Shown here in pieces: positions 2,867 to 16,619 of a stretch of DNA of 40,176 bases (the first letter of the stretch is position 1; each line of letters begins with the position of its first letter). The stretch is from the sequence record PQ850602.1, one strand, 5' to 3'. The notes below the pieces were generated by a model. It did not search any database, was not told the origin of the DNA, and saw only the letters and a program-made list of their open reading frames with translations. The stretch comes from Escherichia phage EmilieLinder_Bas103. A program made the translations under genes and the position numbers.

Positions 2867-2889
2867 CAATTCGACTCACTATAGGGAGA
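2867..2889 (+). promoter_or_regulatory. T7 RNAP promoter phiOR
   Basis: CAATTCGACTCACTATAGGGAGA, close match to 23-bp T7 promoter consensus; +1 G about 2884; upstream of gene 19.5. Confidence 0.8.
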
Positions 2890-3193: not shown

Positions 3194-3432
3194 GGTCTTC
3201 CTGACCGACTGATGGCTCACCGAGGGATTCAGCGGTATGATTGCATCACACCACTTCATCCCTATAGAGTCAAGTCCTAAGGTATACCCATAAAGAGCCT
3301 CTAATGGTCTATCCTAAGGTCTATACCTAAAGATAGGCCATCCTATCAGTGTCACCTAAAGAGGGCCTTAGAGAGGGCCTAAGGAGTCCCTAGAGGGTCC
3401 TTTAAAATATACCATAAAAATCTGAGTGACTA

Positions 3433-3591
3433 TCTCACAGTGTACGGACCCAAAGTTCCCCCATAGGGGTCCCTAAAGCCCAGCCAATCACCTTGAGTCA
3501 ACTTTCAGTTGACTTTGAGGGTCCCTAAGGGTTGGGGTTGGTCCTTTGGGTTTGTCTTTGAGTGTTGCTTTGAGTGTCTCTTTGTGTCCCT
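3433..3591 (+). repeat. Terminal repeat (single copy, as at a concatemer junction); mature genome ends predicted here
   Basis: Begins TCTCACAGTGTACGGACC and ends ...GTGTCTCTTTGTGTCCCT, matching T7 160-bp direct terminal repeat from memory; only one copy in window, so repetition is inferred. Confidence 0.6.
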
Positions 3592-3602
3592 ATCTGTTAC
3601 AA

Positions 3603-3732
3603 CCTCCTAAAGTCACCTCCTAAAGTCACCTCCTAAAGTCACCTCCTAAAGTCACCTCCTAAAGTCACCTCCTAAAGTCACCTCCTAAAGTCACCTCCTA
3701 AAGTCACCTCCTAAAGTCACCTCCTAAAGTCA
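3603..3732 (+). repeat. Perfect tandem array: 10 x 13-bp unit CCTCCTAAAGTCA
   Basis: Directly counted 10 identical head-to-tail 13-bp units immediately right of the terminal repeat; T7 has irregular CCTAAAG-containing repeats here. Confidence 0.95.
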
Positions 3733-3893
3733 TTCCTACCGTCTACAGCCTAAAGCCTAAACCTAAAGACCCATCAAGTCAACGCCTATCTTAAAGTATC
3801 CTCTAAAGACCAGCCTAAAGCCTATCCCTAAAGCCTATCCTATAGATGCCCTGTTGTTGCCTATAAAGAGATAATCTTCAATCATTGTCTTTC

Positions 3894-3916
3894 TAATACG
3901 ACTCACTATAGAGAGA
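3894..3916 (+). promoter_or_regulatory. T7 RNAP promoter phiOL (variant, GAG at +1..+3)
   Basis: TAATACGACTCACTATAGAGAGA; one change from consensus in the initiating region. Confidence 0.7.
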
Positions 3917-3979
3917 CAGACAGAGAGAGACTACTTAAAGAGCCTTAAAGAGAGAAATTAAAGTTTTTAAAAAAGAGTA

Positions 3980-4008
3980 TTGACTTAAAGGGTCATAGGG
4001 TTTACTAT
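3980..4008 (+). promoter_or_regulatory. Host sigma70 early promoter A1
   Basis: -35 TTGACT, 17-bp spacer, -10 TACTAT; upstream AAAAAGAGTA A-tract; corresponds to T7 A1. Confidence 0.75.
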
Positions 4009-4105
4009 TCATCTCGTCAACGGGACAACGGCCCAAAGCCACTCCCTGAGATACCGGAGTCAACCGGATAAGTAGGCAGCCTGTAAGCCATACGAAAAAC
4101 AGGCA

Positions 4106-4135
4106 TTGACAACATGCAGTAACATGCAGTAAGAT
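4106..4135 (+). promoter_or_regulatory. Host sigma70 early promoter A2
   Basis: -35 TTGACA, 18-bp spacer, -10 TAAGAT; corresponds to T7 A2. Confidence 0.7.
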
Positions 4136-4213
4136 ACACAGCGTCAATCGGTAGCACACGGTGTCTTCTAGGTGACTTAAGCGCACCACGGCACATAAGG
4201 TGAAACAAAATGG

Positions 4214-4242
4214 TTGACAACATGAAGTAAACACGGTACGAT
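4214..4242 (+). promoter_or_regulatory. Host sigma70 early promoter A3
   Basis: -35 TTGACA, 17-bp spacer, -10 TACGAT; corresponds to T7 A3. Confidence 0.75.
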
Positions 4243-4335
4243 GTACCACATGAAACGACAGTGAGTCACCACACTGAAAGGTGATGCGGTCTAACGAAAC
4301 CTGACCAAAGACGCTCTTTAACAATCTGGTAAATA

Positions 4336-4398
4336 GCTCTTGAGTGCATGACTAGCGGATAACTCAAGGGTATCGCAAGATGCCCTTTATGATATCCA
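4336..4398 (+). promoter_or_regulatory. RNase III processing hairpin R0.3
   Basis: Hairpin ...ACTCAAGGGTATCGCAAGATGCCCTTTATGAT... upstream of gene 0.3, as in T7. Confidence 0.5.
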
Positions 4399-4424
4399 CT
4401 AACAACACTATGAGGTAACACAAG

Positions 4425-4772
4425 ATGGCTATGTCTAACATGACTTACAAAAACGTTTTCGGCCACGCTTACGAAATGCTGAAAGAAAACATCCGTTATG
4501 ATGACATCCGCGACACTGATGACCTGCACGATGCTATTCACATGGCTGCCGATAGCGCCGTTCCGCACTACTACAGCGACATTTTCAGCGTAATGGCAAG
4601 TGAAGGCATTGACCTTGAGTTCGAAGACTCTGGTCTTATGCCGGACACCAAGGACGTGACCCGCATTCTACAGGCTCGCATCTATGAGCAACTCACACTC
4701 GACCTCTGGGAAGACGCTGAGGACTTACTGAACGAGTACCTTGAGGAAGTCGAGGAAGAGGAAGAAGAGTAA
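4425..4772 (+). CDS. 0.3: Ocr, DNA-mimic anti-restriction protein (gp0.3)
   Basis: 115-aa highly acidic [25 protein letters not shown]..., near-identical to T7 Ocr; first early gene after A1-A3. Confidence 0.95.
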
Positions 4773-4924
4773 TGACTAATAGCACGCAATACGGTCTGAC
4801 CGCTCAAACTGTGCTGTTCTATAGTGACATGGTGCGCTGCGGGTTTGATTGGTCGCTCGCAATGGCACACCTTAAGGAACTGTACGAAAACAACAAGGCA
4901 ATAGCTTTGGAATCTGCTGAGTGA
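4772..4924 (+). CDS. 0.4: gp0.4-like small early protein (T7 gp0.4 is reported to inhibit FtsZ)
   Basis: 50-aa [35 protein letters not shown]..., start overlaps 0.3 stop (TAATG); matches T7 gp0.4; absent from ORF track (<60 aa). Confidence 0.8.
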   Translation: MTNSTQYGLTAQTVLFYSDMVRCGFDWSLAMAHLKELYENNKAIALESAE

Positions 4925-6820: not shown

Positions 6821-9472
6821 ATGAACACGATTAACATCGCTAAGAACGACTTCTCTGACATCGAACTGGCTGCTATCCCGTTCAACACTCTGGCTGACCA
6901 TTACGGTGAGCGTTTAGCTCGCGAACAGTTGGCCCTTGAGCATGAGTCTTATGAAATGGGTGAAGCACGCTTCCGCAAGATGTTTGAGCGTCAACTTAAA
7001 GCGGGTGAGGTTGCGGATAACGCTGCCGCTAAGCCTCTCATTACTACTCTGCTCCCCAAGATGATTGCACGCATCAACGATTGGTTTGAGGAAGTGAAAG
7101 CTAAGCGCGGTAAGCGCCCGACAGCCTTCCAGTTCCTGCAAGAAATCAAGCCGGAAGCGATAGCGTACATCACCATTAAGACAACTCTGGCTTGCCTAAC
7201 GAGCGTAGACAATACAACCGTTCAGGCTGTAGCAAGTGCAATCGGTCGAGCTATTGAGGACGAGGCGCGCTTTGGTCGAATCCGTGACCTTGAAGCTAAG
7301 CACTTCAAGAAAAACGTTGAGGAACAACTTAACAAGCGCGTAGGGCACGTCTACAAGAAAGCATTCATGCAGGTTGTAGAAGCGGATATGCTCTCTAAGG
7401 GTCTACTTGGTGGCGAGGCGTGGTCTTCGTGGCATAAGGAAGACTCCATTCACGTTGGTGTGCGCTGCATTGAGATGCTCATTGAGTCCACCGGAATGGT
7501 TAACTTACATCGTCAAAATGCTGGCGTAGTAGGGCAAGACTCGGAGACTATCGAACTTGCACCGGAATACGCTGAGGCTATCGCAACCCGTGCAGGTGCG
7601 CTTGCTGGTATCTCTCCGATGTTCCAGCCTTGCGTAGTTCCTCCTAAACCGTGGACTGGTATTACTGGTGGTGGATATTGGGCTAACGGTCGTCGTCCTC
7701 TGGCACTGGTGCGTACTCACAGCAGGAAAGCACTGATGCGCTACGAAGACGTTTACATGCCTGAGGTGTACAAGGCGATTAACATTGCGCAAAACACCGC
7801 ATGGAAAATCAACAAGAAAGTCCTAGCGGTAGCCAACGTAATCACCAAGTGGAAGCATTGCCCTATAGAGGACATCCCAGCGATTGAACGTGAAGAACTC
7901 CCGATGAAACCGGAAGACATCGACACGAATCCTGAGGCTCTCGCTGCATGGAAACGTGCTGCTGCTGCTGTGTACCGCAAGGACAAGGCTCGCAAGTCTC
8001 GCCGTATCAGCTTAGAGTTCATGCTTGAGCAAGCCAACAAGTTCGCTAACCATAAGGCCATCTGGTTCCCTTACAACATGGACTGGCGCGGTCGCGTTTA
8101 CGCTGTGTCAATGTTCAACCCGCAAGGTAACGACATGACCAAAGGACTGCTGACGCTGGCTAAAGGAAAACCAATCGGCAAGGAAGGTTATTACTGGCTG
8201 AAAATCCACGGTGCAAACTGTGCTGGTGTCGATAAGGTTCCGTTCCCTGAGCGCATCAAGTTCATTGAGGACAACCATGAGAACATCATGGCTTGCGCTA
8301 AGTCTCCACTGGAGAACACTTGGTGGGCTGAGCAAGATTCTCCGTTCTGCTTCCTCGCGTTCTGCTTTGAGTACGCTGGGGTACAGCACCACGGCTTAAG
8401 CTACAACTGCTCTCTTCCGCTGGCGTTCGATGGGTCTTGCTCTGGCATTCAGCACTTCTCCGCTATGCTCCGAGATGAGGTTGGTGGTCGCGCTGTTAAC
8501 CTTCTGCCTAGCGAAACCGTTCAGGACATCTACGGGATTGTCGCTAAGAAAGTCAATTTGATTCTGCAAGAAGACGTAATCAACGGAACCGACAACGAAG
8601 TAGTTACCGTGACTGATGAGAACACTGGTGAAATCTCTGAGAAAGTCAAGCTGGGCACTAAGGCGCTGGCTGGTCAGTGGTTGGCTTACGGTGTAACACG
8701 TAGCGTGACTAAACGTTCAGTAATGACTCTGGCTTACGGGTCCAAAGAGTTCGGCTTCCGTCAACAAGTGCTGGAGGACACCATTCAGCCAGCAATTGAT
8801 TCCGGTAAGGGTCTGATGTTCACGCAACCGAATCAGGCTGCTGGATACATGGCGAAACTGATTTGGGAAGCTGTTAGCGTTACGGTGGTAGCCGCTGTGG
8901 AGGCAATGAACTGGCTCAAGTCCGCTGCTAAGCTGCTGGCTGCTGAGGTCAAAGATAAGAAGACTGGAGAGATTCTTCGCAAGCGTTGCGCTGTACATTG
9001 GGTAACTCCTGATGGGTTCCCAGTGTGGCAGGAATACAAGAAGCCAATTCAGACTCGCTTGAACCTGATTTTCCTCGGTCAGTTCCGCTTACAGCCAACC
9101 ATTAACACTAACAAGGATAGCGAGATTGATGCACACAAACAGGAGTCCGGTATTGCTCCTAACTTTGTACACAGCCAAGACGGTAGTCACCTGCGTAAGA
9201 CTGTAGTGTGGGCGCATGAGAAGTACGGCATCGAGTCTTTTGCATTGATTCACGACTCCTTCGGGACCATTCCGGCTGACGCTGCTAACCTGTTCAAAGC
9301 TGTTCGCGAAACTATGGTGGACACCTATGAGTCTTGTGATGTACTGGCTGACTTCTATGACCAGTTCGCTGACCAGTTGCATGAGTCTCAACTTGACAAA
9401 ATGCCAGCACTTCCGGCTAAAGGTAACTTGAACCTCCAAGACATCCTTAAGTCAGACTTCGCGTTTGCGTAA
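6821..9472 (+). CDS. 1: T7-type single-subunit DNA-dependent RNA polymerase (gp1)
   Basis: 883-aa ORF, about 98 percent identical to T7 RNAP from memory; specificity-loop ...QPNQAAGYM... (Asn as in T7), consistent with the T7-type promoters in this window. Confidence 0.98.
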   Translation: MNTINIAKNDFSDIELAAIPFNTLADHYGERLAREQLALEHESYEMGEARFRKMFERQLKAGEVADNAAAKPLITTLLPKMIARINDWFEEVKAKRGKRPTAFQFLQEIKPEAIAYITIKTTLACLTSVDNTTVQAVASAIGRAIEDEARFGRIRDLEAKHFKKNVEEQLNKRVGHVYKKAFMQVVEADMLSKGLLGGEAWSSWHKEDSIHVGVRCIEMLIESTGMVNLHRQNAGVVGQDSETIELAPEYAEAIATRAGALAGISPMFQPCVVPPKPWTGITGGGYWANGRRPLALVRTHSRKALMRYEDVYMPEVYKAINIAQNTAWKINKKVLAVANVITKWKHCPIEDIPAIEREELPMKPEDIDTNPEALAAWKRAAAAVYRKDKARKSRRISLEFMLEQANKFANHKAIWFPYNMDWRGRVYAVSMFNPQGNDMTKGLLTLAKGKPIGKEGYYWLKIHGANCAGVDKVPFPERIKFIEDNHENIMACAKSPLENTWWAEQDSPFCFLAFCFEYAGVQHHGLSYNCSLPLAFDGSCSGIQHFSAMLRDEVGGRAVNLLPSETVQDIYGIVAKKVNLILQEDVINGTDNEVVTVTDENTGEISEKVKLGTKALAGQWLAYGVTRSVTKRSVMTLAYGSKEFGFRQQVLEDTIQPAIDSGKGLMFTQPNQAAGYMAKLIWEAVSVTVVAAVEAMNWLKSAAKLLAAEVKDKKTGEILRKRCAVHWVTPDGFPVWQEYKKPIQTRLNLIFLGQFRLQPTINTNKDSEIDAHKQESGIAPNFVHSQDGSHLRKTVVWAHEKYGIESFALIHDSFGTIPADAANLFKAVRETMVDTYESCDVLADFYDQFADQLHESQLDKMPALPAKGNLNLQDILKSDFAFA

Positions 9473-9480
9473 CGTCAAAT

Positions 9481-9503
9481 TAATACGACTCACTATAGAG
9501 GGG
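9481..9503 (+). promoter_or_regulatory. T7 RNAP promoter phi1.1A
   Basis: TAATACGACTCACTATAGAGGGG. Confidence 0.85.
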
Positions 9504-9556: not shown

Positions 9557-9579
9557 TAATACGACTCACTATAGGGGAA
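9557..9579 (+). promoter_or_regulatory. T7 RNAP promoter phi1.1B
   Basis: TAATACGACTCACTATAGGGGAA. Confidence 0.85.
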
Positions 9580-13021: not shown

Positions 13022-13024
<3 letters not shown>

Positions 13025-13044
13025 TACGACTCACTATTAGGGGG
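13022..13044 (+). promoter_or_regulatory. T7 RNAP promoter phi2.5 (A-initiating)
   Basis: TAATACGACTCACTATTAGGGGG; +1 A at about 13039 as in T7 phi2.5. Confidence 0.85.

Positions 13045-14813: not shown

Positions 14814-16619
<1,806 letters not shown>

Follow-up and report, generated by a model that had tools for sequence, protein, structure and literature searches.

The phiOL promoter of phage T7 is deemed weakly used and has been omitted from expression models, and it has been tied to genome entry mediated by the T7 RNA polymerase (RNAP) (PMC6171733, PMC6938266). In T7 lines evolved with an altered RNAP, phiOL was mutated and duplicated in four lines of four (PMC6171733). When the primary origin phi1.1A/B is absent, secondary origins are usable for T7 replication; phiOR and phi6.5 are named among them, and phiOL is not (PMC8373140). 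Even for T7, what phiOL does is poorly defined.

Two annotated phiOL promoters are available for comparison, those of T7 (NC_001604, nt 405) and of 13a (EU734174, 423–445). The T7 promoter reads TAATACAACTCACTATA followed by AGGAGA at +1 to +6, with A at +1 and A at −11, the latter lying in the triplet AAC (PMC6171733). The 13a promoter has the consensus core and A at +1. Both are directed rightward and are followed by a purine-rich leader and then by an AT-rich segment. At T7 replication origins, too, an AT-rich segment reportedly comes after a promoter. The T7 class III consensus promoters (phi6.5, phi9, phi10, phi13 and phi17) carry GGGAGA at +1 to +6 and belong to the late genes. Two T7 class II promoters already start with GAG, namely phi4c (GAGAGA) and phi1.1A (GAGGGA).

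The locus compared here with these systems comes from Escherichia phage EmilieLinder_Bas103 (PQ850602.1). Further in this study the whole stretch of DNA analysed, 40,176 nucleotides long, is referred to as the window. The T7 left-end sequence TCTCACAGTGTACGG was found in it only once, at position 3433, which makes the window a circularly permuted version of a T7-like (Teseptimavirus) genome, assembled with one collapsed copy of the terminal repeat. For a 24-kb segment of the window the closest genome is that of Escherichia phage AnnaIndermaur_Bas104 (98.7% identity, 98% coverage), and JeanTinguely matches the segment with 97.1% identity; both are Teseptimavirus relatives. The top match for the left end is JeanTinguely (95.6%). 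The features used below are as follows.

2867–2889, plus strand: phiOR homologue, CAATTCGACTCACTATA followed by GGGAGA; the sequence after it is the same as that after T7 phiOR
3433–3591, plus strand: terminal repeat, one collapsed copy, starting with the left end TCTCACAGTGTACGG at 3433; the right boundary is approximate and placed by homology
3592–3598, plus strand: ATCTGTT, the pause motif of T7 RNAP at the concatemer junction (class II termination); single copy in the window
3602–3840, plus strand: left-end repeats, a perfect 13-bp tandem array plus CCTAAAG-type repeats
3894–3916, plus strand: predicted T7 RNAP promoter orthologous to phiOL (−17 to +6), TAATACGACTCACTATA followed by GAGAGA
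3911–3932, plus strand: predicted initially transcribed leader, purine-rich, (GA)3 CA GA CA (GA)4 CT; a GA tract whose length varies among relatives
3933–3942, plus strand: conserved ACTTAAAGAG block just 3' of the variable leader; its CTTAAAG core is invariant in 28 aligned phiOL regions
3951–3980, plus strand: AT-rich stretch (+41 to +70), about 85% A+T by composition, downstream of phiOL as in T7
3980–4008, plus strand: homologue of the host σ70 promoter A1 (TTGACT, 17-nt spacer, TACTAT), aligned with the T7 A1 region
4106–4135, plus strand: homologue of the host promoter A2 (TTGACA, 18-nt spacer, TAAGAT)
4214–4242, plus strand: homologue of the host promoter A3 (TTGACA, 17-nt spacer, TACGAT)
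4425–4772, plus strand: gene 0.3 (Ocr anti-restriction protein), 94% identity to T7 gp0.3 over 103 aa, E = 2e-73
6821–9472, plus strand: gene 1, T7-type single-subunit RNAP, 98.3% identity to T7 RNAP over 883 aa

The 23-mer at 3894–3916 is exactly TAATACGACTCACTATAGAGAGA. All 17 positions from −17 to −1 (3894–3910) match the consensus TAATACGACTCACTATA, and position +1 is G (G3911). The hexamer from +1 to +6 is GAGAGA instead of the consensus GGGAGA, the only departure being A3912 at +2 (G to A); lacking GGGAGA, the site does not fall among the full-consensus class III promoters. Aligned with the relatives, it occupies the columns of the phiOL annotated in T7 and 13a. The upstream block GCCTTGTTGTT...AATCATTGTCTT and, downstream, ACTTAAAGAG followed by the −35 region of A1 are common to the aligned relatives (MAFFT, n = 28). 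On the plus strand the site follows the terminal repeat and the CCTAAAG repeats and precedes A1–A3 and gene 0.3, which is the first gene downstream of phiOL and of the three host promoters. Because of this synteny and the alignment of the flanks with annotated phiOL, we regard the site as the phiOL orthologue of T7 and 13a. The identification as phiOL had been made in an earlier, sequence-only reading of this DNA, which also stated that GAG replaces GGG at +1 to +3 and that the phiOL of T7 departs from the consensus in another way; the exact sequence of the window and the T7 sequence given above agree with it on both counts.

The phiOL of the window thus occupies the position of the T7 and 13a promoters and shares with them the flanking blocks, the rightward direction, the purine-rich leader and the AT-rich segment behind it. 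It has neither the A at −11 nor the A at +1 of T7 phiOL. The consensus core is shared with 13a, whereas +1 is G and +2 is A in the window. With the class III promoters it is identical from −17 to +1, differing from them in the start hexamer and in its location at the left end instead of at late genes. The homologues of phi4c and phi1.1A in the window (at 15950 and 9481) also start with GAG. Both differ from phiOL in being located elsewhere in the genome; moreover, the upstream half of phi4c is non-consensus (CAATCCGACTCACTAAA), and phi1.1A is a part of the primary replication origin. Two other explanations of the segment were considered and rejected. No plus-strand ORF spans 3894–3916, and the site is not explained by coding. 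Over its first 80 nt, the predicted transcript folds no better than shuffled sequences (z = +1.17), which speaks against a structured leader RNA. A scan of 3300–4800 with Rfam gave no family match.

The site is one of a complete series. When the window was searched with the 18-mer TAATACGACTCACTATAG allowing up to three mismatches, 16 sites were found, all on the plus strand, compared to 0.04 expected in shuffled sequences; a looser scan gave 17 sites, all on the plus strand and in the orientation of the genes. These are therefore a real set of phage RNAP promoters and not chance matches. The 17 promoters are collinear, one to one, with the 17 annotated promoters of T7, and most are identical or nearly identical to them. 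By comparison with the T7 annotation, the promoter at 15950 is phi4c and not phi4.7. The RNAP encoded by gene 1 has the same AT-rich recognition loop and intercalating hairpin as T7 RNAP. In the specificity loop the sole change is M750I, with N748, R756 and Q758 kept. Given the overall identity and the retained promoter-contact residues, the polymerase reading the promoter at 3894–3916 is, as judged from its sequence, effectively T7 RNAP.

Other promoters of the window also differ from their T7 counterparts around the start. The phi1.1A homologue (9481–9503) starts with GAGGGG (GAGGGA in T7) and has T instead of C at −17, the phi1.1B homologue (9557–9579) starts with GGGGAA (GGAGAA in T7), and the phi2.5 homologue (13022–13044) starts with AGGGGG (AGGGAA in T7). 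Drift of the start region is general to early and middle promoters and not specific to phiOL. The phiOR homologue departs from the consensus at −17 and −13, positions at which T7 phiOR, a full consensus match, does not; the two promoters thus show the reverse of the situation in T7, where phiOL is degenerate and phiOR perfect. JeanTinguely (MZ501081) has at 28–50, near the right end and ahead of bas64_0007, a short ORF annotated as hypothetical, a promoter reading TAATTCGACTCACTATA followed by GGGAGA, and the sequence downstream of it is unlike that of phiOR in the window. This suggests that the right-end region differs between these two close relatives.

The left end around phiOL is rich in repeats. 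The ATCTGTT motif, whose role as the RNAP pause motif of the concatemer junction is described in PMC3276506, begins at, or directly after, the end of the terminal repeat in T7, 13a (annotated repeat of 170 bp) and Yanou (annotated repeat of 159 bp). The annotation of 13a places a "concatemeric junction" at the position equivalent to ATCTGTT of the window. The terminal repeat of T7 is said to be 160 bp long. Just to the right of the motif, positions 3602–3732 are occupied by a perfect tandem array of the 13-bp unit ACCTCCTAAAGTC (10.1 copies, 100% identity). This unit is present in nine copies in Bas104, five in SYGE1, two each in JeanTinguely and 13a, and one in Bas102, and it does not occur in T7, phiA1122 and Yanou. 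The array represents the CCTAAAG repeats of the left end in expanded form; the expansion may be functional, and it may be real or an assembly effect. Directly upstream of phiOL (region 3860–3893) lies the AATCATTGTCTT block, which is of variable length among the phages, with one to three tandem copies: Bas104 has three, 13a, SYGE1 and Bas102 have two each, and the window has a single copy.

Alleles of phiOL were compared in 28 distinct homologues. They were collected from the best BLAST matches to the window and from pattern matches, and the sample leans toward relatives. Pattern scans yielded eight loci in IMG/VR and three in a metagenome collection, and 12 further GenBank relatives were added. 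Megablast with a 64-bp query spanning the promoter returned one record, probably owing to the word size of 28 bp and perhaps to low-complexity filtering, and is unfit for counting alleles. The commonest start hexamer was GAGAGA, found in 15 of the 28 homologues, the window included; given the biased sample, this proportion is indicative and is not a frequency for the genus. The others were AGGAGA (8 of 28, T7 and 13a among them), GGGAGA (3 of 28, all three with A at −11), GGGGAG (1 of 28) and GGGGGG (1 of 28). A fully consensus −17 to −1 element combined with GGGAGA was seen in none of the 28, each sampled phiOL having at least one departure from the consensus. The GAGAGA start is paired with five different alleles of the −17 to −1 element, and it occurs on each of the two A1-region haplotypes; it is therefore widespread and not confined to one recent lineage.

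The entire 23-mer of the window recurs as well. It is found in Yersinia phage phiA1122 (AY247822) and in the Escherichia phages JeanTinguely (Bas64), AnnaIndermaur (Bas104), MeretOppenheim (Bas102) and JacobBurckhardt (Bas65), and also in two metagenomic contigs, one from IMG/VR and one from ENA. In the five phages it is located in the same place, between the repeats proximal to the terminal repeat and A1. They differ from the window in the length and composition of the GA-rich leader and in the number of AATCATTGTCTT repeats, and the promoter is unannotated in them, as phiOL is in the records of most relatives compared. The sequence-only reading had presented the GAG start as a noteworthy variant and had proposed an alignment with relatives as a check. 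With the 23-mer shared by phiA1122 and at least six others, GAG as the majority form in the alignment of 28 homologues, and two T7 promoters starting in the same way, that assessment does not hold. The GAG start is the commonest form of phiOL among the sampled relatives, already known and ordinary.

Variation is distributed unevenly along the locus. Most positions of the −17 to −1 core are invariant in the 28 relatives, while the sequence just upstream and just downstream contains indels; this contrast points to selection on the promoter. In the 28 homologues, 8–42 nt separate TATA from the ACTTAAAGAG block, and 60–90% of them are purines. The leader starts with 3 to 14 GA units in the 15 phages of the GAGAGA type, the leader of phiA1122 being (GA)14. 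Those of JeanTinguely, (GA)4 CA GA CA (GA)3 CT, and of contig L017, (GA)3 CA GA CA (GA)3 CT, differ from the leader of the window in GA units only. The start alleles of phiOL plausibly arise by replication slippage in this (GA)n tract of variable length. Since the dinucleotide tract begins at +1, slippage would let the initiating bases vary freely and would leave the binding element unchanged. The metagenomic contig L017 (ERZ1036441, 25,204 bp) is peculiar in another respect. At about 234–370 it contains phiOL with a GA leader as in the window, and after ...GAAATTAAAGT the A1–A3 region is replaced by an unrelated GAA/GAG-rich sequence ending with TAATGGCTAAC. It may be a natural deletion or recombinant without the host promoters, or a misassembly.

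The effect of the A at +2 may be estimated from studies of T7 RNAP. According to the account of Imburgio et al. 2000 given in PMC7668259, a non-consensus base at +2 approximately halves the yield, substitutions at +1 are not tolerated, and positions after +2 tolerate changes well; the two-fold figure refers to class III context templates in vitro, with a leader other than this one. RNAs starting with GAG are readily made by T7 RNAP from a class III promoter, with measurable 5' heterogeneity (PMC3683919). The phiOL of the window is hence predicted to behave as a consensus promoter of moderately reduced strength. It should be at least as strong as the weak phiOL of T7, and probably stronger, because its −17 to +1 sequence is fully consensus and that of T7 is changed at −11 and +1.

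Overall, we consider it highly probable that the site is a functional phiOL of a T7-like phage, with auxiliary roles, in which GAG is simply the commonest allele, produced by slippage under weak selection. From the observed sequence, synteny, conservation pattern and cognate polymerase we infer the start site, activity, strength and biological role. The T7-type RNAP of the phage would bind the consensus −17 to −5 element and melt the DNA from −4 to +2. Initiation would occur at G3911, with GTP incorporated first and ATP next, giving pppG-A-G. Transcription would proceed rightward through the purine-rich unstructured leader and the AT-rich segment into the early region with A1–A3 and gene 0.3. 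The A at +2 would lower the output about two-fold, and a degree of 5' heterogeneity or abortive product may come with it. The GAG allele most likely arises and persists through (GA)n slippage, with the exact initiating bases under weak selection. In analogy to T7, the auxiliary roles would be RNAP-driven entry of the left end of the genome when the phage RNAP is already present and, possibly, priming at a secondary origin.

A link of phiOL to replication is plausible by the same analogy. The sequence-only reading had implicated transcription from phiOL in packaging as well, and this is doubtful on geometric grounds. The promoter is located 295 bp to the right of ATCTGTT (3592–3598) and fires rightward, away from it, whereas phiOR (2867–2889) reads into the motif. 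The packaging link is unsupported because phiOL transcribes away from the pause site and phiOR into it.

The main competitor of slippage under weak selection is that the GAG start together with the (GA)n leader is a selected tuning device. It would weaken or delay escape from phiOL, or else an abortive or R-loop-prone purine RNA would prime left-end replication, the number of GA units acting as a rheostat. Several observations are in line with such tuning: none of the 28 homologues is fully consensus over −17 to +6, the three GGGAGA alleles all having A at −11; all 28 have a leader rich in purines; behind it in the window comes an AT-rich stretch, the arrangement of T7 origins; plasmids with T7 origins require inactivation of RNase H, consistent with RNA-primed initiation (PMC8373140); and phiOL changed repeatedly in experimental evolution (PMC6171733). 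On the other hand, five start hexamers coexist in close relatives, GGGAGA, GGGGAG and GGGGGG among them, and phages that are nearly identical differ in their number of GA units, as neutral slippage would give; the known effect of +2, as reported in PMC7668259, is modest. The coexisting hexamers and the differences in GA units favour near-neutral slippage, and we hold selected tuning to be unlikely. It is quite improbable, too, that the hypervariable (GA)n tract from +1 is a slippage-driven functional tuner of promoter escape, and/or that it forms a stable hybrid of purine RNA and DNA which primes left-end replication or aids entry.

The phiOL site could instead be a decaying or unused relic that is kept by recent common ancestry and contributes nothing, given that T7 phiOL is considered weak and is absent from the expression models (PMC6938266, PMC6171733) and that three strong host promoters downstream already drive the early region. 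We find this very improbable, as the core of the window is a perfect consensus match, most core positions have stayed invariant in 28 genomes despite the flanking indels and repeat expansions, and phiOL was mutated and duplicated under selection in the evolved T7 lines (PMC6171733). The A at +2 could also be a sequencing or assembly error in the low-complexity GA tract, with GGG as the true start; the dinucleotide repeat and the permuted assembly with its collapsed terminal repeat are in line with this. However, 14 genomes or contigs that were sequenced independently share the TATAGAGAGA junction, and the usual errors in such tracts are changes of length and not G-to-A substitutions, so that an error is scarcely credible.

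If the GA tract were functional, neither the choice between GAG, AGG and GGG nor the number of GA units would be neutral, both being under selection, and a tuner of this kind would bear on the long-neglected question of the purpose of phiOL; otherwise the variation matters little. The comparison also indicates, for the 28 homologues sampled, that the AGGAGA phiOL of T7 is not the typical form in the genus. The usual set of T7 promoters is retained in this phage, a result of use for annotation, since phiOL is mostly unannotated in the compared relatives.
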